Of a stretch of 64,000 nucleotides of DNA, positions 51,555-64,000 are shown piece after piece. The notes beneath the pieces were generated by a model. It searched no databases, had not been told where the DNA came from, and was given only the letters and a program-made list of their open reading frames with translations. The DNA is taken from assembly GCA_020426515.1 (NCBI GenBank), contig JAGQPW010000007.1, positions 10,908 through 74,907 on the forward strand, in the 5' to 3' direction. Numbering within the stretch: the stretch's first letter is position 1; every line of letters starts with the position of its first letter. The position numbers were made by a program, and so were the translations under genes. The stretch is from Planctomycetaceae bacterium. GTDB taxonomy: Bacteria > Planctomycetota > Planctomycetia > Planctomycetales > Planctomycetaceae.

Positions 51555-51861
51555 TGTGGACAACCTGTTGATGAACTGGGTCCGATCCGTGCAGAACGAA
51601 CCTCATCCCGATGGCCGCTCGAATCGGGTGTGCGTAACCCTTGGTTTTACTGACCATCCCTGCACGGCATGTCCACAGAGTATCATGGTGTTTTGAACAC
51701 GATCAGGCGGCCTCTGAATGGCAATAACTTGCGATTTCACCTACACTTCGGATTCAGATTGTGCCGACTCTCCACAATTTTCGGCTCGTCTGTTTCCACT
51801 ACTCCTTTCTCTTTAAGTGTCTGGACCTTCCGGTCTTTCAAATGACCGGAGATGTGGACAA
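51555..51861. promoter_or_regulatory. Cluster of four DnaA-box-like 9-mers upstream of dnaN
   Basis: TGTGGACAA at 51555-51563 and 51853-51861. TGTGGACAT on the reverse strand at 51669-51677. TGTGGAGAG on the reverse strand at 51768-51776. Consensus is TGTGGATAA. Confidence 0.4.
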
Positions 51862-51890
51862 AGCGAACTACACAGCGGAACGGAATTGTC

Positions 51891-53015
51891 ATGAAACTGA
51901 CTGTCTCACGGAGTGAATTGGCCGGTGCGTTTCAAATCGTCGGAGGAGCAGTTCCGTCACGTACCCCCAAGGACATTCTCAAGAACGTTAAACTTGTCGT
52001 CGACAACGGCACGGCCACGCTGATGGGGACCGACCAGGAAGTTGGCATCCGGTATCAGCTGCCTGAGGTTCAGACGGATTCCGTAGGTGAAGTCCTGCTG
52101 CCACCGCAACGGGTCGTGGCTATTCTGCGTGAAGTTCAGGACGACATGATCCACCTGGAAGTCACCGAAGAAACATTGTGGATTCGTTCGGGACAGAGCG
52201 AGTTCCGGCTGTCAGTCGAAGATCCGGCTGAGTTTGCCAATGTGCCGGACTTTCAGGAGGAAAGCTACTACATCATGCAGGGGCGGGCTCTGAAGCAGGG
52301 AATTCAGCGCACGCTGTTCGCTACGGACCCGGAGAGCACACGCTATGCCCTGGGAGGTGTGCTGCTGGAACTCGATCAGGAAGACATCACACTGGCCGCT
52401 ACGGACTCTCGACGGCTGGCCGTGTACAAATCCTCCTGCAAGGCACAGGGAGCCGCCAGCGAAGAGGTAGGCGTTCCGGTCATTCCCTCCAAGGCGATGC
52501 AGCTGATCGACCGCAGCATCCATGATGACGATCAGGAAGTGCATCTGGCCATTCATCAGAACGATGTGCTCATCCGCAGTGGTCTGTCCACCATCTATGC
52601 TCGCCTCGTGGAAGGACGTTTCCCTCGCTACCAGGACGTTATGCCTTCGCACTTCGGGATCACGATTGATCTTGTCGTGGGACCATTTCATTCGGCAGTG
52701 CGGCAGGCCATGATTGTGACCAACGATGGCAGTCACGGAGTCGACTTCCAGTTTGCAGATGGCACGCTCACCCTGACCAGTAGCGGGGCAGATGTCGGGT
52801 CCTCCAAGATTCAGATGCCGATCGGCTACGACGGAGAAGAGTTCACGGTCACGTTTGACCCCAAGTATGTGGCCGACTTCCTGAAGGTTCTCGATCCAGC
52901 CTCACCGGTCAGCCTGAACCTGGTGGATCCGAACTCAGCGGCTGTGTTTAAGTCGGGGGACAACTACACGTACGTGGTGATGCCGTTGTCCAATGAGGAT
53001 CGCGGCGGCCAGTAA
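51891..53015 (+). CDS. dnaN: DNA polymerase III beta sliding clamp
   Basis: From ATG 51891: MKLTVSRSELAGAFQIVGGAVPSRTPKDILKNVKL...ATDSRRLAV...YVVMPL. The track start 51852 overlaps a DnaA-box-like site. Confidence 0.95.
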   Translation: MKLTVSRSELAGAFQIVGGAVPSRTPKDILKNVKLVVDNGTATLMGTDQEVGIRYQLPEVQTDSVGEVLLPPQRVVAILREVQDDMIHLEVTEETLWIRSGQSEFRLSVEDPAEFANVPDFQEESYYIMQGRALKQGIQRTLFATDPESTRYALGGVLLELDQEDITLAATDSRRLAVYKSSCKAQGAASEEVGVPVIPSKAMQLIDRSIHDDDQEVHLAIHQNDVLIRSGLSTIYARLVEGRFPRYQDVMPSHFGITIDLVVGPFHSAVRQAMIVTNDGSHGVDFQFADGTLTLTSSGADVGSSKIQMPIGYDGEEFTVTFDPKYVADFLKVLDPASPVSLNLVDPNSAAVFKSGDNYTYVVMPLSNEDRGGQ

Positions 53016-53125
53016 GGATGCCAGGAGAACTGATGGGTTTGGAGTCATGTTGTGCGAGGGAGCGAACTTTGAAGGAGCGACCATTTCGAGGTCATGGAGC
53101 ATCATCTCCCGGTCGAGCCGGGCGG

Positions 53126-53440
53126 ATGCATGCGACTCCCGATCCCGTCAACCTGGCAGATGTTCTCTCGGAACTTTTTGCTCGTCGGGGATACGGTCGG
53201 GTTCAAGGCGATCGACAGCTCAAAGAGGCCTGGACTGCCGTGGCCGGAGAACTCATCTCCGCCAAAACCCGTGTTCAGGGACTACGCAACGGCGTTCTTC
53301 AGGTGGGGGTTTCCAGTTCTGGACTTCTCAGCCAGCTGGTTTCGTTTCAAAGGGTGGAGTTGCTGGAAAAACTTCAAACAGAACATCCCGAACTGAAGAT
53401 CCGCGATTTGAAATTTCGCCTGCAGGGAAGAATGCGATGA
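53126..53440 (+). CDS. DUF721 (DciA-like) protein in the recF position
   Basis: LADVLSELFARRGYGRVQGDRQLKEAWTAVAGELISAKTRVQGLRNGVLQVGVSSSGLLSQLVSFQRVELLEKL fits the DUF721 pattern. ATG 53126 is preferred; the longest ORF starts at 53018. Confidence 0.65.
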   Translation: MHATPDPVNLADVLSELFARRGYGRVQGDRQLKEAWTAVAGELISAKTRVQGLRNGVLQVGVSSSGLLSQLVSFQRVELLEKLQTEHPELKIRDLKFRLQGRMR

Positions 53441-53476
53441 GAGGTGCTCAAGACGGTCCCGATTGCGGGTGAATGA

Positions 53477-56140
<2,664 letters not shown>

Positions 56141-56155
56141 CCACCACGTGTGGTG

Positions 56156-56237
56156 TCAGACATAATTCCTGTCACTTCAGACACAATACCTGTCACACTC
56201 AGACACAATTGTTGTCACGGCCGTCCGACAATTCCTG
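56156..56237. repeat. 3.5 tandem copies of a 20-bp unit TCAGACAyAATwsyTGTCAC (period 21-22 bp)
   Basis: Full copies at 56156-56175, 56177-56196 and 56199-56218, with a degenerate copy at 56224-56237. Each unit carries the inverted half-sites GACA/TGTC. The array lies between convergent gyrB and the E1-like gene. Confidence 0.8.
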
Positions 56238-56309
56238 AATTGCAACTCTTCCGGAAGACGTTTGAATGAAGTCTTGTGGATGAAGAAACCCGGTCATTCA
56301 AAGCAAAAG

Positions 56310-57701
56310 TTAATAGGTGAATCCTGGATTGAAACCATTCAATGGGTTGGTTGCCGATACCACTGACCGACTGCTTGGGTCGCGTAGAGTCATGTCGATC
56401 ACTTCTGCCCTAGCCCCCCCATTTAGGAATCGCAGAACTTCCGCGATTACGAGTGAGGCGGCCGCTGTGCCAACAAACGGCGCGCCCACAGACCGCGTGG
56501 CGAGTTGAACCAAGCCGCAGTCATCCATTCCCTTAGCCGACAAATCCTGGTACGCAGCTCCATTCGGTCCTCGGGAGCGATGTACCTCAACATCACTCCA
56601 TTTCCGGCGTGCCGTGGTCGTTGCAGGGAAGGTGTGAACGCGCAGGGCAAGGTATTCCGTCGGACCTGACCCTAAGCCGGATTCGACAATCCAGTCAAAG
56701 CCAGCGTCTTCGTATGCGGCCCGCGCTTGGGGATTATCCACACCTCCAAGTGCCAATCGAGGTTCCTGCTCGGTAACCTTCATTCCCCCGGGGAATGGGC
56801 GCTCGATGACTCTTGCGTTGAAACCGCGCGCTTCTGCCCACTCCGCCATCGTCCTGGTTTTGAGGCGACCAATAAGCTCGCCGCTGGTGAGAAGTGAGGT
56901 ACTGTCGTTGGACTCGGCAAGCCGATCGAAATCCTGCAAGTAGAGCATCACCTTCGAAGGGTCTGCGTAGGGTAACAAGCCGAGCACCCATAGATAGGCT
57001 TGCCCAAGATGGCCGAGCCCAATCAGCCAAAGGTTCGCTGGGAAAACGATGTCGAGCGGACCGGCAGGTGCATTTTCCCAATCAATCGACTCTGGACTCC
57101 AGAGTGAAAGGCCGACGCGCCGCCGACCGGCCATCGGGTTGCCGCGCAAGTTTTGAAAGACCTCCGAGAGGGCAATCGCCGAAGCGAGAATTGCTGCTGG
57201 AGTGATTGCCCTTTGTGAGGGTAGCGAGTGTGAATCGGCTTGCGGCACAACGCCGCCGCGCCAATCGCTGAAGATGACATTCAGGCAAATTTGGTGCTCG
57301 TTCGATGTGCGATTCACACTGCCCAGAATCAGCGTAGGCATCGTCCCGGCGACTTCGTTAATCGCGTGCCCACCGAGGGCGGCTACGGCTCCAGCAAGGG
57401 TTCGTTGGCCGGGAACCGGAACTAGCAGCGGAGTGTCGAGACTCCCTTCGATGTAGACGCCACCGAGTAGTGCACGTCGCGCAACATTGACGAGAGTGAG
57501 CAGAGCAGCCTGATGGGCAGGAGACTTCTGAACCTCTGGGCCGACACGAACACCGATACGATACGTGCGAAACAGATAGTACCCGTCGGCAACGGTTGCG
57601 ACTTCGCCGCTATCAATCGCGATTTTCACAACGCGACTGAGTGTATCGGCGCTCGTCTGGCTGCTGTCAAAACTCGTAAAGGGCATTACTTCGGAAATCA
57701 T
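56310..57701 (-). CDS. bilD: E1-like (ThiF/MoeB-family) ubiquitin-like-activating enzyme, BilD-like
   Basis: Rossmann LWLIGLGHLGQAYL (GxGxxG) in the C-terminal half, preceded by an N-terminal second lobe. ATG 57701 overlaps the JAB stop (ATGA). The track ORF start 57761 is a TTG inside the JAB gene. Confidence 0.8.
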   Translation of the reverse strand: MISEVMPFTSFDSSQTSADTLSRVVKIAIDSGEVATVADGYYLFRTYRIGVRVGPEVQKSPAHQAALLTLVNVARRALLGGVYIEGSLDTPLLVPVPGQRTLAGAVAALGGHAINEVAGTMPTLILGSVNRTSNEHQICLNVIFSDWRGGVVPQADSHSLPSQRAITPAAILASAIALSEVFQNLRGNPMAGRRRVGLSLWSPESIDWENAPAGPLDIVFPANLWLIGLGHLGQAYLWVLGLLPYADPSKVMLYLQDFDRLAESNDSTSLLTSGELIGRLKTRTMAEWAEARGFNARVIERPFPGGMKVTEQEPRLALGGVDNPQARAAYEDAGFDWIVESGLGSGPTEYLALRVHTFPATTTARRKWSDVEVHRSRGPNGAAYQDLSAKGMDDCGLVQLATRSVGAPFVGTAAASLVIAEVLRFLNGGARAEVIDMTLRDPSSRSVVSATNPLNGFNPGFTY

Positions 57702-58183
57702 ATTAAACCCCAACTGACTTTGAGGACGGAGCGGGCTTGCCAACCGCTGAGGTTGGTCCAACGATGGTCACCTTCGTAGTGAAACACGCCGAGCCGGTGA
57801 CGCCAGATCCATCCAAACGCATAGTTCGGAACGATGATCGCAAGATGTCCGGCGCGAGCAATCATGGGGTTTGTTCGGTCCACCTCGCTTTGGAATGCCC
57901 CGGCAGGGTGCGTGTGTATGTCGGCGATGACGGTTAGCTTTTCTGCGCGGCAGATCTCCCAAAGGCGGGTAAACGAGTCGCCCTGCAGAATGCAGACGCC
58001 GATCGAATATGCTTGCGGGTCAAGCTCATCATAGAACACGCAACGATGCGCTTGCCGTTTATCGCCTTTGACAGTTCCAAGAATGAAGCACCCGGATTCG
58101 TGCCGACCGTGGCTCCTGAATTGAAGCTCCGTCATGCAGCGAAGCCAAAGACTTCGCTGGAATCGAATCAGCGGCTTAGCCAC
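57698..58183 (-). CDS. bilC: JAB/MPN (JAMM) metallopeptidase, BilC-like deconjugating/processing enzyme
   Basis: HESGCFILG (Glu) followed by [16 protein letters not shown] (HxH...SxxD JAMM motif). The GTG start overlaps the E2 stop by 8 nt. Confidence 0.85.
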
Positions 58184-58649
58184 CTCGCACTCCTTTGTAG
58201 TCGCTTGAATTGAGTAAGGAATGAAGTTCGTCCAAGTAGAGGACTACACCTCGGCTTGGCGACCACTGAAGGGCGGGGTATTCATTTCGCCAGTTGTCGT
58301 GCCCCACCGCAGCGATTCGATCGCAAGGCAGGTAGAGGCATGTTCCATCTTTCCACTCGGGTCTGAAGACCGCTGGAATCCGAGACGCTCCACCGGGCCA
58401 TCGATTGAAGGGAAGCGGCTGGTCTGCTTCGTGATCCCACGGCCGAGCCGTGGGAGCCTCTTGCGAATAGCCGCTGCAATCGAAGCGAAACCAGTATTCA
58501 TTTGGAGCCCCGTCGCGAGCTGCCGCTGCGACGGCAATCTGCACGATAGGCCAGGCGATTGAACCCAGCTTCCAACGATTCAGGTGAACCCCGAGTTGGA
58601 AAGCACCCGCCGCGACGTGGTCGCGGAAGGCACGCTCATCGGGACGCAT
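58176..58649 (-). CDS. bilB: E2-like ubiquitin-like-conjugating enzyme, BilB-like
   Basis: From ATG 58649: [20 protein letters not shown]...[20 protein letters not shown]...FNRWPGG...[20 protein letters not shown], with candidate catalytic Cys residues. The assignment comes from its position between the Ubl and JAB genes plus an E2-like size and pattern. The upstream part of the track ORF overlaps the Ubl gene and is rejected. Confidence 0.65.
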
Positions 58650-58668
58650 GTTGTTTGTGTCCAAGTGA

Positions 58669-59163
58669 CTAGCCCTCGACGCGTTTGATGGGCACCAGGT
58701 TGAAACAGAGCGAGCAGCATCCGCACACCAGGGTTCCGATTTGCGTGTCCGGCTCCGGGCGGTCGTCGGAGCCGCAGATTTGGAGCACGTGCTCGGTAGC
58801 ATCGACGGGCGACATGCCAATCGCATGCACAAAGCGTTTCTTCACATGGTCGACCGTGTTTGCAGTGGGAAACTGCATGACCTCGGTTAACTCGTTGAAG
58901 TGCAGCGTGACTTCGACTTTGCGGCAGCGGTGAACGTGCACTCGGTGCTTGTCGCAAATGCCTTGTTTGCTCAGCGCGACATCGGGCTTGAGCGGGGTTT
59001 CGTCATCGGAACCGAAGACATGTGCATCCGCGCGATGCTTCTCGGGGAACCCGAGTTTCACAGCGGCTTCCAACACGTCAGCGACCGAGGCTTCGCTGTC
59101 GAGTTGGATGAGTTCCACTCCGCGACTGCCTTCGAACTGCAGGAATAATTGAATTTTCGACAT
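58669..59163 (-). CDS. bilA: Tandem beta-grasp ubiquitin-like protein ending in Gly, BilA-like
   Basis: 164 aa in two halves of about 80 aa with similar alternating patterns ([12 protein letters not shown]... and [14 protein letters not shown]...). The C-terminus ...LVPIKRVEG is followed immediately by the stop codon. First gene of the four-gene cluster. Confidence 0.7.
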
Positions 59164-59346
59164 TGGCCTTGTTCCTCTCTCGTTACTGGTTGAAGCTTGT
59201 CGGCCATCATTGGCCTCACACTTTCTTCAACCGGCGAGAAGGCCCAATCGGAAATGTCAGCCGCGAACATTTTTGATGCGGGGAGAGACTTGCAAGCGCA
59301 GCACCGCCGCCGAGCGACGGAACTGGTACTGACAAGAACTTGCTGC

Positions 59347-62300
59347 CTAGCGAGTAGGGCCTTGGGCCGGGCAGATAAAGAAGTATGGACAGGACGGACA
59401 GCGTTGGCTTAGCCTCGGGTCGAAGCGTCCGTTACCGGCTGCGGCAATGGCGCTTTCGCAAGCCTTCAACTTGTCCCCCGCCTTTTTCGATTTGTCGGTT
59501 GCAGCTCGACGTTCACCGTCGAGCAGAGACACATGCTCGAAGTGGACTTCTTCGTTGGGATGGTCGGAGCGAATGGCAACCTGCAGGAGAATGTATCGCG
59601 GTTTGTCCTCTTCGGATTTAGCCAGTCGCCCAGCCTTCAACCTACGGATGACGATTCCATTCGGAGTTCGTTCAATCTGATCTGCGCGACAACTGATGAC
59701 CGCGCCGTTTCCGGGGGCGACAACTTGCCGTGCCGCGGGCAAGTTCTCCCCGCTCATCACCCCGTGCGCCGCCTCGATCATGGCCTTCGCCATGCGGCGG
59801 TAAAGGGGCTCGAAAGGATGATCGCCTGGGCCGAATTTCTCCCAGTCCTCCTCGAAGCGGGCGATTAGACCGTCCCGTCGTTCGTCTGCCGATGCGGTCT
59901 CGCGTAGCCAAGCCATGCTCGCATGCAGTGCTGATTGGAACTTGAGAAACGGCGAGGCGGCGTCTGCTCCGCCAAGTTCTAGGGCGTGATCGTAGTAGAA
60001 TCGGCGAGGGCAATCGATATAGGTCTCGATTTCCCTTGCTGTCCACCGGTCGTTCGCCATTCGCCCGACGAGCAAGGGAAAAGTCGGCTCGGGAATGCCG
60101 TCAGCGGTCCACCTAGGCGATACGTCTATGCGGTGTGGCAAATGGGAAGAAACTGTTTCGAGAAACCGCGAGGGCCTCGTATTTCGCATGCCATTTGTCT
60201 GCGCTCGCGAAAGGTGCAAACCGTCTCTGGCACGGGACGCTCCAACGAAGAACAGGCTGTCCTCTTCTGCATCTCTGGTCATCAACACGTCGGAACTAAT
60301 CAGTCCAGGTGGAAGCGGACACGGCTCGTATCTGTTGGGGGCCGGAAACTGTGTGCCAGTCAGAGCAAGGATATGAACGATGGGAAACTCTAACCCCTTG
60401 CTCGAATGCACTGTCATCAACCGAACCGCATCAATGTCGCTGACCGCGGCGGGCAACTGACGAAGCTGCTTCTCTTCGTCGAGGATTTCGAGACGACGGA
60501 CGTGTGCCAGAAAAGCGCGCTTCGGATCGTCTTTCTTCGACGGCTTGAACGCGAAGGCGAACTGTAGCAATTGGTAGATGGCAAGCCGCCGCTGCTGGCC
60601 TGGAACGGTGTCATCTGCCATGAAGGGTTGCAGGTAGCCGCTTCGCCTCAAAAGATACGAAATAAGAAAACGATGCGGCGACAGAGGCCATTCTGCATCT
60701 TGGACGTCGGCGACAAGCCTGGCCAGGCCTTTACGTCCCCGTTGGCTGATACCCGGCACGTTTGCAAAGTCTCGAAGCGTCTTGAGCATCGTCTCTTGCT
60801 GCTCCCGTCGCCTTTGGAACAACGCGCCGATGTCTTCAGCAGGCACGTCATACATTGGCAGCTGCGCGACACGGAAAAGCCCAACTCCCTTGGGCTCAGC
60901 GACGAGAGACAAGAGTGAGAGTAGGTCGCGGATCTCGGGGCGCTCGAAAAAGTCCCCGAAGTACAGACAGGGCACGCAAGCATCTTCAAGTTGCTTTGCC
61001 AGCCGTGAAAGGATCGTGTGCGATCGAGCGAGAATGGCGTGGTCGGCGAATTTTGAACCGGCCTCCACTCTTGCCAGAATTTCCTTGGCGATGCCGTGCG
61101 CTTCGGCTTCACGAGTCGTGGCCACGTCGTACTGAACGGTACCGTGATTCGCTCCGCGATTTGCAGTCAGCGCTCCTGTGGTGGCGCTCGCACCAGCCGC
61201 CATCCCTCGGCCAAACGATTCGAACAGCTTCACGATTCGTCCGCCTGAGCGATAGTTGACAGAGAGGTCTGTCGTCTTTGCTCCAGGAAACTCATGCGAG
61301 AACCGAGCCATATTGAGAGGCGATGCACCTCGGAAGCGATAAATCGATTGTCGGACATCTCCGACAACCCACGGTCCGCGACCTGGGGTGCAAAGTTCCT
61401 TGAGCAGCAAGGCGCTGGCGCGATTCATGTCTTGATATTCATCGACAAGAACGTGACGCTTGTCATTGCGGACAGCCTCTCGCACCTCGGGGTTATCGCG
61501 GAGCAGTTTGATTGGCAGGGCGACGAGATCGCCGAAGTCGACGACGCCCCGTTCCCTCAACGCTGCTTCGTAGATGGCGTAGATTCGGGCGACTTCTATC
61601 GCTCGATCCGCCGCCTTCTGTGAATCTTGGTCGGTAGATTCTTCTGCCATCGCCCTGGCAGCATTCATGTAGTCGTCAGGTGAGGCGAGTTCATCTTTTG
61701 CCCGACCGATAGCCCCGAGTATCGAGCGCAGTTTCAGCATCGGCTCGTGCAGATCGAGGTAGTGACTCAGTTCCAGACTTGGAAGCAAGTCTTCCAACAG
61801 CATCAATGAATCGGTGCGATCGAGAAGCTTTGGTTCAGATTCAAAACCCAGCAAGTGACCATGCTTTCGCAAAAGTTCCAGTCCGAAAGCATGAAACGTT
61901 CCGGACCAAATCGCAGTGGCCTTTTCTCCGACTTCTGATCGAATCCGACTCGCCAGATCTTGTGCAGACAGATTGGAGTAGGTAAGTGCCAGAATCGAAC
62001 AGGGTGCTTCGCCTCTACTGATTAGGTGGGCGATTCGTCCGACTAGAGTTCTTGTCTTTCCGGTTCCGGGACCTGCTCTGACCTGTCGTGGTTCATCCGT
62101 AGCGGTGATTGCCTCTAGCTGGCTTGCGTCAGGTTCGGTTTCACGGCGTGGTTCAGATTGCGTATTACCTTCGGCTGGCAGTAACAGAGCGTCGGCCAGT
62201 TGCTGCATGACAAGATCGACCGGGATGCCGATCTCGCTAGCGATGGCATCGGATTCGGGTATGCCGCTGGAACAACGTTGTCGGAGCTTGTTTCGAGGGA

Positions 62301-62721
62301 GGAGAAACTCTCTAGCGAACAGGTTGGCTTGGGCTTCTGCACGTTCCTTCGGACTGTACGAGTCCTGATCTCCGACGGAGGACATCTCTGGTTCTGAAGG
62401 AACCAGGAGATCCAAGTCCGCATTGGCGCAGGCCGCTCCGGCCTCATCGAGCCAGTGGTGTGCGAACTCATGCGCAATGTGGAAATGCGCAAGTGGTAAC
62501 GGAGTGGCATTCGAGTAGTAGATTCTCTGACGTTCTCGATCGTACGCAGCCTCCGCTCCATCCAGAAGTGTGTCATCTGGAGGCCGACTGACGAACCTTA
62601 TTCCTGTTGCCGCTTGTGCGGCAGCCAGAAGGGCACTTGCCGTAATGAGTGCGTCTGCGCCGTTGTCAAACTCGCTATGACGTTGTTTCGCCAAACGTCG
62701 AACTTCCTTCCACGCGCTCAT
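59347..62721 (-). CDS. Three-domain fusion: ImmA/IrrE-type Zn-peptidase + UvrD/Rep SF1 helicase + Cas4/AddB-like Fe-S nuclease domain
   Basis: Peptidase: HIAHEFAHHW (HExxH) plus ERAEAQANLFAREFLLP. Helicase: AGPGTGKT, VDEYQDMN, GDVRQSIYRFRGA, VNYRS, MTVHSSKGLEFP, FFVGASRAR. C-terminus: YIDCPRRFYY ... CPSCPYFFIC (C...CxxCx5C). Confidence 0.85.
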   Translation of the reverse strand: MSAWKEVRRLAKQRHSEFDNGADALITASALLAAAQAATGIRFVSRPPDDTLLDGAEAAYDRERQRIYYSNATPLPLAHFHIAHEFAHHWLDEAGAACANADLDLLVPSEPEMSSVGDQDSYSPKERAEAQANLFAREFLLPRNKLRQRCSSGIPESDAIASEIGIPVDLVMQQLADALLLPAEGNTQSEPRRETEPDASQLEAITATDEPRQVRAGPGTGKTRTLVGRIAHLISRGEAPCSILALTYSNLSAQDLASRIRSEVGEKATAIWSGTFHAFGLELLRKHGHLLGFESEPKLLDRTDSLMLLEDLLPSLELSHYLDLHEPMLKLRSILGAIGRAKDELASPDDYMNAARAMAEESTDQDSQKAADRAIEVARIYAIYEAALRERGVVDFGDLVALPIKLLRDNPEVREAVRNDKRHVLVDEYQDMNRASALLLKELCTPGRGPWVVGDVRQSIYRFRGASPLNMARFSHEFPGAKTTDLSVNYRSGGRIVKLFESFGRGMAAGASATTGALTANRGANHGTVQYDVATTREAEAHGIAKEILARVEAGSKFADHAILARSHTILSRLAKQLEDACVPCLYFGDFFERPEIRDLLSLLSLVAEPKGVGLFRVAQLPMYDVPAEDIGALFQRRREQQETMLKTLRDFANVPGISQRGRKGLARLVADVQDAEWPLSPHRFLISYLLRRSGYLQPFMADDTVPGQQRRLAIYQLLQFAFAFKPSKKDDPKRAFLAHVRRLEILDEEKQLRQLPAAVSDIDAVRLMTVHSSKGLEFPIVHILALTGTQFPAPNRYEPCPLPPGLISSDVLMTRDAEEDSLFFVGASRARDGLHLSRAQTNGMRNTRPSRFLETVSSHLPHRIDVSPRWTADGIPEPTFPLLVGRMANDRWTAREIETYIDCPRRFYYDHALELGGADAASPFLKFQSALHASMAWLRETASADERRDGLIARFEEDWEKFGPGDHPFEPLYRRMAKAMIEAAHGVMSGENLPAARQVVAPGNGAVISCRADQIERTPNGIVIRRLKAGRLAKSEEDKPRYILLQVAIRSDHPNEEVHFEHVSLLDGERRAATDKSKKAGDKLKACESAIAAAGNGRFDPRLSQRCPSCPYFFICPAQGPTR

Positions 62722-62731
62722 CTTGGTGCTC

Positions 62732-63355
62732 CTAGTGAGAAGTCTCGCTTGTGACGATTCGTCTCCATTCTTCCTTTATCGGAGTCGAAAGCTCTGACGT
62801 TGTGACTGCGTCGAGGAACGACTCCTGTCGCAGTACCGGCTTTCCCTTCGCCTTGTAGCTCGACAATGGAATTGGATCTCCCATCAATACTCGCGAAACA
62901 TCCTCGACGGCAAATTGCAGTGCCGCAGCAATTCCCTCAATACATCGCTGAGGAATGCTCGCAAAAACAATCAAGTGGCGATCAAGCTTTGCCAATAGCG
63001 TGTCATCGAGTTTGCATTGATCCATCAACGTCTGCTCGGAACATCCCGAGGCGCGGATCATCTTGTGGAGGCGAGATTCGGTCGTAGCTCGCAGTTCGGT
63101 AGTCGGAGCGGTCTGATGGTGAATCAAGTTCAAAGCATGGCTGACCATTTTGCTCGCGACACGATCTTCATCAATTACAGGACGTTCGCCACGCTCTTTC
63201 TGTTCGGCCCACGTCGCAAAAAAGCTCGTAAGCTGATCCCGATGCTCGGGGTAGAGCTCGCACCAACGAAGTAGCGCGTCGTATTGGGGTTCCGGTTCCT
63301 GGAGCATGATTTCATCCAGGATGTCTTCAAATGTCACTTGGTCCTTCCTGTTCAT
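62732..63355 (-). CDS. Hypothetical protein with a possible central HTH, partner of the ImmA-like fusion
   Basis: ATG 63355 overlaps the upstream stop (ATGA). Its stop lies 10 nt before the fusion-gene ATG, with AGGAG in between. The segment IRASGCSEQTLMDQCKLDDTLLAKLDR looks HTH-like by eye. Confidence 0.5.
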   Translation of the reverse strand: MNRKDQVTFEDILDEIMLQEPEPQYDALLRWCELYPEHRDQLTSFFATWAEQKERGERPVIDEDRVASKMVSHALNLIHHQTAPTTELRATTESRLHKMIRASGCSEQTLMDQCKLDDTLLAKLDRHLIVFASIPQRCIEGIAAALQFAVEDVSRVLMGDPIPLSSYKAKGKPVLRQESFLDAVTTSELSTPIKEEWRRIVTSETSH

Positions 63356-64000
63356 ATTGATTCTCCCAGTGCAGTACGCATTTGCATCATCGCCCCTTTG
63401 AGCCAATTCTGGATCTGTCGCGGAGACTTCTTAAAATGCGTGCTGAGAGTTGGTTTTGCGATTTCTGTACTTGAGATTTGCCATCCTTGGAGATGATGTA
63501 AAATGACCGCCTCGCGATGAAGTGGATTCGAAATAGCGGCAAGTGCTTTTCGAACCTGTTCGGGCCGAAGACGTTGTGCTTCGGCGAGCAGTGCTATCTC
63601 GCCAGGGTCTGGTTTCCCGTCCGAGTGGGAGGCAATGACTCCATCGTTGTCCTCGCCAATATCCTTGGCCTGAATTCTCGACTCGCTGCATTCGTGCTTC
63701 AATCGTTCTTTGAGTTTCGAGCGTTTGTTGATCGCACGCCGCTCAATCGCTCTGCGAAAGACGATTTCCAGAATCTCGCTTTGCCGACTCGGCGTGCTTG
63801 TGAAGATGAGCAGATTGACCTCTTCGGCAATCTCAATCGCAAATTCTTCGGCGATGTTGGGCGGGAAACCAGATGCGAAATCTCTTGCAATCTGAGCGAT
63901 GCGTTTTCCCAAGCACTCAATCAGCCTCCCGATGTTTTTCTGGTCGTTGCAACGCCAAAGCCATCGAATGAGGTAAACCAGAGTCTCACTCTTCAACGCG
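63352..64000 (-). CDS. Sigma-70-family (ECF-like) protein, probably N-terminally truncated by window end
   Basis: Region-4-like LHREAVILHHLQGWQISSTEIAKPTLSTHFKKSPRQIQNWLKGAMMQMRTAL and region-2-like FAIEIAEEVNLLIF...ILEIVFRRAIERRAINKR. The reading frame is open to the window edge. Confidence 0.5.
   Translation of the reverse strand, partial: ALKSETLVYLIRWLWRCNDQKNIGRLIECLGKRIAQIARDFASGFPPNIAEEFAIEIAEEVNLLIFTSTPSRQSEILEIVFRRAIERRAINKRSKLKERLKHECSESRIQAKDIGEDNDGVIASHSDGKPDPGEIALLAEAQRLRPEQVRKALAAISNPLHREAVILHHLQGWQISSTEIAKPTLSTHFKKSPRQIQNWLKGAMMQMRTALGESI

Follow-up and report, generated by a model that had tools for sequence, protein, structure and literature searches.

A Type I Bil operon in a Planctomycetaceae genome and the sigma factor, HTH and helicase-peptidase genes that may control it

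In a 64,000-nt stretch of a Planctomycetaceae assembly (GCA_020426515.1, contig JAGQPW010000007.1; hereafter, the window), a bacterial ISG15-like (Bil) ubiquitin-like conjugation operon, bilABCD, is encoded on the reverse strand at 56310-59163. These four genes are the cargo half of a seven-gene, co-directional cassette, of which the other three encode a sigma factor, a helix-turn-helix (HTH) protein and a helicase fusion (referred to as the trio). The best overall explanation of the locus, and one that we regard as likely, is that an intact Type I Bil system has been placed under a trio-based transcriptional switch that senses DNA in a CapH/CapP-like manner. A first-pass annotation of the window, made from the letters alone, had described a complete Bil operon; its four genes are indeed intact, but the unit was understated, as the cassette also takes in three conserved genes upstream. 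Taken alone, the four genes are an ordinary addition to a published defence family with a known mechanism.

The three trio proteins were searched by tblastn against 83 loci fetched through BilD, and the trio was counted in the 34 metagenome loci whose upstream sequence measures 4 kb or more. In 28 of these, it immediately precedes bilA in the same orientation, and in 2 more it is interrupted, with BilD identity among the trio-carrying loci going down to ~45%. All seven genes were also found in an Acidobacteriota metagenome-assembled genome (MAG) and on plasmids of Rhizobium leguminosarum, Xanthomonas euvesicatoria and Roseovarius pelagicus, where the first gene of the seven is annotated as LuxR-family or sigma-factor-like. 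The trio is not restricted to Bil: on plasmids of Leptolyngbya boryana, Klebsiella pneumoniae and Acinetobacter lwoffii, it precedes a Type II Bub operon (Multi_ubiq, DUF6791/ThiF and DUF6527), and in Pseudomonas koreensis its cargo is replaced by an IS66-family insertion sequence. Conversely, in Paraburkholderia, the position of the trio ahead of a Type I Bil is taken by stand-alone HTH and ImmA/IrrE peptidase genes, that is, a CapH/CapP-type pair. A functional link between trio and cargo is, in our judgement, highly probable.

A conserved bipartite motif, TTTCCGGT-N14-16-TTGA, is found upstream of the sigma gene and again upstream of the cargo. In the window, the helicase-bilA spacer of 183 nt (59164-59346) holds the promoter-like copy TTTCCGATTGGGCCTTCTCGCCGGTTGA (59227-59254, reverse strand), which begins 91 nt upstream of the bilA ATG and is the sole match to TTTCCGRT-N12-18-KTTGA in the 64 kb (0.08 expected). 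When close relatives are aligned, this block appears as a conserved island amid a divergent spacer. The strict promoter pattern found the motif in close relatives only, so that a looser pattern, tested against shuffled sequences and the reverse strand, was needed; it was counted in 42 dereplicated helicase-to-cargo spacers, Bub loci included. The first block, T(T/A)(T/A)CCG(G/A/C)(T/C), is present in 36 of the 42 spacers (shuffles: mean 7, maximum 18; reverse strand: 8) and the bipartite form in 21 (shuffles: mean 0.6, maximum 4; reverse strand: 0). Before the sigma gene, a first-block match was obtained in 27 of the 33 loci scanned, mostly 25-80 nt and up to ~110 nt upstream. For the window's own lineage, this second site lies beyond the window and was read on a related contig (L095:566-600) as GATTTCCGGTTCGCGAATGCCACCGGTCGTAG.

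The -10-like halves of the two sites vary by clade and agree per locus (CTATTGA, GTCTTGA, GGTTGTAG and CGATTTAC): their mean identity is 0.60 within a locus versus 0.43 between loci, and none of 5000 permutations attained the value observed. A related motif, TTACCG...CGATTGA/CGATTAA, is carried by the Bub plasmids of Klebsiella, Acinetobacter and Leptolyngbya, and a Cupriavidus plasmid (L085) has TTTTCCGGT...GATTTCC 85 nt before bilA (about 7460), while the motif is absent from the spacer of the Paraburkholderia CapH/CapP-type Bil. Two co-evolving, strand-specific bipartite sites look like an autoregulated alternative-sigma regulon, in which their role as promoters is putative. Scans of 56100-59400 for sigma-70 promoters and terminators performed no better than on shuffled sequences. 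Directly downstream of the cargo motif, a predicted leader stem-loop with the core GGCCA-ATGA-TGGCC (59193-59223, reverse strand) folds at -11.5 kcal/mol in RNAfold (z -2.7). A hairpin of differing sequence occupies the same place in 25 of 38 loci at z < -1.5, which suggests that a 5' leader structure, as modelled, is conserved on the cargo mRNA.

The largest trio gene (59347-62721, reverse strand) encodes a 1124-aa fusion of an M78/IrrE-like peptidase, a UvrD-type superfamily 1 helicase and a Cas4-like PD-(D/E)XK domain, with Pfam matches to Peptidase_M78 (5e-11), UvrD-helicase (7e-63), UvrD_C (2e-28) and PDDEXK_1 (1e-12). The motifs HEFAH (84-88), GPGTGKT (217-223) and DEYQD (427-431) can be recognised. 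Across 35 homologues, H84, E85, H88, Walker A and motif II are kept, and the four iron-sulfur cysteines C904, C1108, C1111 and C1117 are invariant. This does not hold for the PD-(D/E)XK site, where RRLK (1026-1029) is found in place of the expected (D/E)xK and is not conserved across the same homologues. Residues 1025-1031 (59629-59649, reverse strand) read IRRLKAG, compared with (I/V)xDYK(T/S)G in Cas4/AddB-type nucleases, and homologues have RRLRTG, RRIQTG(H) or RCIFTG(H) at this position. Judged from these residues, the nuclease domain of the fusion is probably inactive. Given that the peptidase and helicase motifs are invariant and the nuclease site is lost, a DNA-engaging sensor fits better than a degradative effector.

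The second gene of the trio (62732-63355, reverse strand) encodes an XRE-type HTH protein of 207 aa, whose ATG at 63355 overlaps the stop codon of the sigma gene (ATGA). The protein is 100% identical to protein P0220, which uses the same start. The family, for which Pfam has no model, counts 637 representatives at E <= 1e-10, and HTH_31 weakly matches 6 of 20 homologues. Its AlphaFold2 (AF2) model (mean predicted local distance difference test score, pLDDT, 79) has a confident N-terminal three-helix unit, a low-confidence, disordered linker (57-92) and, in the C-terminal part, an XRE-type HTH (96-157) followed by two helices. Foldseek searches with the HTH 96-157 returned C.BclI, SinR, DdrO and ClgR, weakly (E 0.07-0.9).

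The first gene of the trio (63352-64000, reverse strand) encodes a predicted divergent extracytoplasmic function (ECF)-type sigma factor and is cut by the end of the window, so that residues 58-271 of 271 are present. An initial reading as a 214-aa open reading frame (ORF) starting at TTG 63996 was discarded, as this TTG is an internal Leu codon of the full, 271-aa protein. The complete gene is found on an ENA contig (L095:605-1420), next to a gene for a 207-aa protein that is 100% identical to that of the window, and this contig shows that the first 57 residues are missing here. Sigma70_r4_2 matches 15 of 23 homologues of the family (best 4e-15). The family profile aligns with residues 15-182 of E. 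coli RpoE (hhalign probability 96%, E 4e-9). In the PDB, roughly the first twelve matches to this profile are ECF sigma factors, the best at E 3e-7, and chains of other proteins (p300/CBP) enter the list no earlier than E ~2e-3. Because of these three kinds of profile match, the family is assigned, on sequence grounds, to the ECF-type sigma factors, as a divergent group whose N-terminus is extended by ~70 residues.

The cargo consists of four ORFs on the same strand, an intact Type I BilABCD set. With stop codons included, and with product lengths that assume the most plausible starts, these are bilA (58669-59163, reverse strand; 164 aa), encoding the ubiquitin-like protein (Ubl), with the C-terminus ...KRVEG* and the Gly164 codon at 58672-58674; bilB (58176-58649, reverse strand; 157 aa), encoding an E2-like conjugating enzyme with Cys109 (58323-58325) and His117; bilC (57698-58183, reverse strand; 161 aa, GTG start), encoding a JAMM/JAB deubiquitinase-like peptidase; and bilD (56310-57701, reverse strand; 463 aa), encoding an E1 adenylating/thioester enzyme with the catalytic Cys395 (56517-56519). 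Reading of the reverse strand bore out the co-directional arrangement and the junctions described in the first-pass annotation, namely a 19-nt gap from the bilA TAG to the bilB ATG, an 8-nt overlap between bilB and bilC (GTGGCTAA) and a 4-nt ATGA overlap between bilC and bilD. The PADLOC search that it had recommended gave matches for BilA (4.4e-47), BilB (4.7e-61), BilC (9.6e-60) and BilD (1.2e-160), each spanning nearly the whole profile (in the case of BilD, positions 3-449 of 453). Four such end-to-end matches mean that the ORFs are not due to chance, and the gene order and content proposed earlier could be refined to Type I. The Pfam families suggested at the time mostly gave no match. 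In the local Pfam copy, BilB is DUF7665 (E 2.5e-61), BilC has a weak Prok-JAB match under the gathering score, and no model matches BilA or BilD, for which newer Pfam models were found on homologues (PF27055 and PF27312, respectively); the NCBIfam scan had no model for any of BilA-D.

Residue conservation was assessed in 57 to 84 translated homologues per Bil protein. The terminal Gly164 of BilA, directly before the stop, is kept in at least 95% of 57 homologues. In BilB, which is 157 aa long and not ~158 as first noted, the Cys of the reported LYLPCD segment (C109) is at least 95% conserved, and H117 is invariant (66 homologues). The JAMM motif and upstream Glu that had been noticed in BilC correspond to H90 (in H90-T-H92), H92, S99, D102 and E29, all five invariant in 73 homologues. 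In BilD, the GLGHLG loop seen in the ThiF-like protein (residues 228-233), D257, D322 and C395 are likewise invariant (16 and 84 homologues). The length of BilD (463 aa) and its full-length hidden Markov model (HMM) match are consistent with an E1 that pairs an inactive with an active adenylation domain and carries a mobile Cys domain. As for BilA, the two similar halves expected from the first inspection exist in fold and not detectably in sequence. The AF2 model (pLDDT 92.8; 66 homologues in the alignment) has two beta-alpha-beta units, that is, two beta-grasp domains, and its top Foldseek matches are linear di-ubiquitin, the tandem Ubl of OASL, ISG15 and FAT10 (E 7e-10 to 1e-8), while the best local alignment of one half against the other scores 25 over 16 residues. 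The duplication is thus apparent only from the fold. BilB also ends in Gly-Gly (...GVRGG, 58176-58190, reverse strand), which is not conserved among its homologues and is thus probably a coincidence.

The four genes can be attributed almost with certainty to Type I Bil, the type of Collimonas sp. OK412 (Millman et al. 2022; Hor et al. 2024), in the Type I/Type II naming of Chambers et al. The two systems agree in gene order, and each encodes a Ubl of ~164 aa with tandem beta-grasp domains and a terminal Gly, an E2 that stands alone and carries a catalytic Cys, a JAMM-type peptidase and a ~460-aa E1. Mutation of G163, C113, D115, C385 or G219 abolishes defence by Collimonas Bil, and the equivalent residues are all present here; BilB C109 is the equivalent of C113 and, together with H117, of the C138/H151 pair of Ensifer aridi. 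The host differs, being a member of the Planctomycetota, whereas the tested Bil systems come from Alpha- and Betaproteobacteria. The planctomycete-like origin suspected from the letters agrees with a neighbouring protein that is 100% identical to that of a Planctomycetaceae MAG, and with the closest BilD proteins, which are those of a Pirellulales MAG (89%) and Anatilimnocola sp. NA78 (81%), followed by an Acidobacteriota MAG (69%). At least 2362 BilD relatives were found, several of them in Planctomycetota.

The genes could in principle belong to a different ubiquitin-related system, i.e., Type II Bil (6C/CEHH), Bub (6E), CBASS Cap2/Cap3 or a ThiF/MoaD-type sulfur-carrier pathway, as each of these includes a ThiF-like E1 together with a beta-grasp protein, and relatives are annotated as 'thiamine biosynthesis protein ThiF'. 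We consider this very improbable, given that the Type I PADLOC models fit all four proteins end to end, that E1 and E2 are separate, and that the set includes an E2 Cys as well as a JAMM peptidase. The Type II Bil of Ensifer aridi (6C/CEHH; Chambers et al. 2024; PDB 8tyx/8tyy), which conjugates to lysines, does share the gene order and the four enzyme classes. However, the two types form distinct sequence clades, and in sequence searches of the PDB, only BilC had a match to a Type II protein (8tyx_B, the Type II BilC; E 3.5e-6), with no relative detected for BilA, BilB or BilD. Moreover, in Type II, the Ubl is usually built from a single beta-grasp domain, and its Gly is followed by residues that BilC has to cleave off, whereas BilA here has two domains and nothing after its Gly. 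The classes 6C and 6E of Iyer, Burroughs and Aravind are equated with Type II Bil and Bub by Chambers et al. and Ye et al., who map no class to Type I. Type II Bub (6E.2; Ye et al. 2024) has the upstream trio and a related motif in common with the present locus, but its cargo is made up of a multiubiquitin, an E2-E1 fusion and a DUF6527 protease and uses oxyester chemistry, none of which is found in the window. Pfam and PADLOC scans of the seven cassette proteins detected no DUF6527, no cyclase and no Bub- or CBASS-type fusion (for a cyclase, the scan extended to these seven proteins only), so that the distinction from CBASS made at the outset, on separate E1 and E2 and no cyclase, is upheld for the cassette.

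Based on these elements, the following sequence of events can be proposed. By homology to Collimonas Bil, BilD would adenylate Gly164 of BilA and hold BilA as a thioester on Cys395 before handing it on to Cys109 of BilB, which would then join it to lysines of a phage tail-tip protein, leaving progeny virions tail-less or non-infective. BilC, as a JAMM peptidase, would trim off-target conjugates. As to the timing, the helicase fusion would engage single-stranded DNA (ssDNA) or DNA ends arising from phage replication or DNA damage, and this engagement would activate its M78 peptidase, which would cleave the HTH protein, probably within the disordered linker. As long as the HTH protein is intact, it would keep the sigma factor or the promoters silent; the freed sigma factor would drive both its own promoter and that of bilABCD, resulting in a burst of Bil expression. 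That the link between trio and cargo consists in transcriptional control through the sigma factor is probable in our view. The cleavage of the HTH protein by the protease, which is proposed by analogy, is a serious possibility towards which we remain slightly more doubtful than convinced.

Several points weigh against this interpretation. The trio is missing from four to six of the 34 loci, and Bil defends E. coli when its four genes only are expressed from pBAD, so the trio is not needed for the conjugation chemistry. Both facts, together with the matches of the helicase fusion to HMMs of GajB-type and other UvrD defence proteins, would suit a rival explanation in which the four-gene Bil is autonomous and only shares defence islands with the trio, the latter being a helicase-based system in its own right for defence or repair. 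Yet the position, strand and spacing of the trio beside the cargo are fixed across phyla, the cargo motif matches and co-varies with the sigma-gene motif, the catalytic site of the fused nuclease is not conserved, and the slot of the trio is exchangeable with a CapH/CapP-like pair. Thus, we regard co-travel of two independent systems as unlikely and retain the trio-based switch. On the protein side, profile and fold searches supported no assignment of the N-terminal domain of the 207-aa protein to a known anti-sigma domain, as no similarity to any was detected; the protein could act as an anti-sigma factor, a repressor or both. Neither the sigma fragment of the window nor the full 271-aa protein has a significant Pfam match on its own. 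The nuclease site is judged lost from aligning a domain that is divergent, the motif may serve as an operator and not as a promoter, and the tail-fibre target would be an extrapolation from coliphages.

A further difficulty is the Type I Bil on a plasmid of Cupriavidus sp. EM10 (L085, 4641-6052 and about 7460), which is found without the helicase fusion. Two genes are located upstream, one of them detectably related to the 207-aa HTH protein, and the place of the helicase is occupied by a different gene in the opposite orientation, which suggests that the module can exchange its sensor part. The same locus bears on another alternative, namely that the helicase fusion is a partner in Ubl conjugation, either as an E3-like substrate recruiter or as a conjugation target on phage DNA. 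In its favour, wherever cargo was seen behind the trio in the plasmid loci inspected (about a dozen), it served Ubl conjugation, as Type I Bil or as Type II Bub, with no other type of defence among them, and Bil is without an E3. However, in Cupriavidus, a sigma-like and HTH-like pair and the motif are kept where the helicase is absent, Collimonas Bil recognises its target without the trio, and the sigma factor, the HTH protein and the paired promoters would all be left unexplained. A role in conjugation is therefore quite unlikely, even more so than co-travel, and a role of the fusion in the switch is preferred.

Regulators of related immune operons have been described elsewhere, those named for Bil and Bub being CapW/BrxR, CapH+CapP and CapK+CapS. 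In CapH/CapP (Lau et al. 2022), an ssDNA-activated M78 peptidase cleaves an HTH repressor; the pair regulates Type II Bil, Bub and CBASS, being found with 15% of the operons for Type II Bil and with 31% of those for Bub, and in 24 CBASS systems, a sigma70-family sigma factor lies beside capH/capP. The trio resembles CapH/CapP, as well as DdrO/IrrE and ImmR/ImmA, in that an XRE-type HTH protein and an M78 (HExxH) peptidase are encoded beside an immune operon. It differs in that the peptidase has no GAF domain (CapP-type proteins consist of peptidase, linker and GAF) and is instead fused to UvrD and an iron-sulfur, nuclease-like domain, and in that the HTH protein has 207 aa with extra N- and C-terminal domains, unlike CapH. 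Moreover, the genes are co-directional with the cargo, whereas capH and capP are divergent and share a promoter region, and an ECF-like sigma factor and paired promoter-like sites are integral to the module. The second comparison is with RpoE/RseA-type pairs of ECF sigma and anti-sigma factors, with which the trio has in common the sigma-2 to sigma-4 homology, a translationally coupled next gene and a promoter-like motif before both the sigma gene and the target operon. Unlike in these pairs, the sigma factor has a 70-residue N-terminal extension, its partner carries an HTH but nothing recognisable as an anti-sigma domain, and proteolysis would be the work of a cytoplasmic, helicase-coupled enzyme.

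In the literature searched, the trio is not described, the supplementary tables of the Bub paper excepted, where such loci may be counted as CapH+CapP; the Bil and Bub papers searched mention neither a helicase-fused peptidase nor the trio, and what comes nearest is the report of 24 CBASS loci with a sigma70-family gene beside capH/capP. Provisionally, we regard the trio as an undescribed regulator of Bil and Bub operons. More tentatively, the three trio proteins may together represent a fourth family of transcriptional switches for Ubl immune operons (Type I Bil and Type II Bub), in which a translocating helicase, in place of a passive ssDNA-binding domain, would gate the protease and so free a dedicated, autoregulated ECF-like sigma factor.

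A planctomycete example added to a published defence family helps annotation and is unsurprising. The possible control of the operon has wider consequences. In the published Collimonas work, the four genes were expressed from pBAD and the native upstream genes are not described; in E. coli, the Ubl was conjugated to a phage tail-tip protein and protection was obtained. Functional work on Type I Bil has all been done from an artificial promoter, and control of timing matters for a system that could mis-tag host proteins. The trio and the paired promoter-like sites offer a concrete hypothesis on Bil regulation that is cheap to test. Since the same module precedes Bub, whose biological role is unknown, its helicase-protease activator could reveal the signal for both Ubl systems. 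Gene switches controlled by a protease would, moreover, gain a new kind of input device in a helicase-coupled M78 peptidase, if true.

On its other side, the cassette adjoins gyrB, as had been noted from the start: gyrB (53585-56140, forward strand) is convergent with bilD and is preceded by dnaN and dciA (Pfam), the dnaN-dciA-gyrB block occupying 51852-56140 of the window. In the Pirellulales MAG (L002, 11814-13866), the same seven-gene cassette, with 88-97% protein identity, is not beside gyrB and adjoins an IS110-family transposase and a tyrosine recombinase. The different genomic place in these two genomes indicates that the cassette is mobile. The Bub version of Klebsiella adjoins Tn7-like tnsD and tnsC-like genes.

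Two of the related loci deviate at bilA. In Anatilimnocola sp. NA78 (L001, NZ_CP187419.1, 8830-11389), bilB, bilC and bilD are present with 81-91% identity, only the C-terminal beta-grasp half of bilA is left (residues 98-164, 97% identical), and there is no upstream trio, an opposite-strand gene of 1752 aa abutting the bilA remnant; either the copy has decayed, or it represents a variant with a single-domain Ubl. On the Roseovarius pelagicus plasmid (L089, 9338-9895), the deposited annotation puts a 185-aa ORF on the wrong strand at bilA, where the forward strand reads ATGACCCAAATTGACATTTTTTATCAAGGC..., a BilA-like start. Finally, between the stop codons of gyrB (56140) and bilD (56310) in the window, three 20-nt direct repeats are found (56156-56218, forward strand) with 21-22 nt spacing: TCAGACATAATTCCTGTCAC, TCAGACACAATACCTGTCAC and TCAGACACAATTGTTGTCAC. 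No further copy occurs in the window (0.05 expected), and none in 98 related loci. These repeats may be protein-binding sites that mark the edge of an inserted island, e.g., a transposon or recombinase end.

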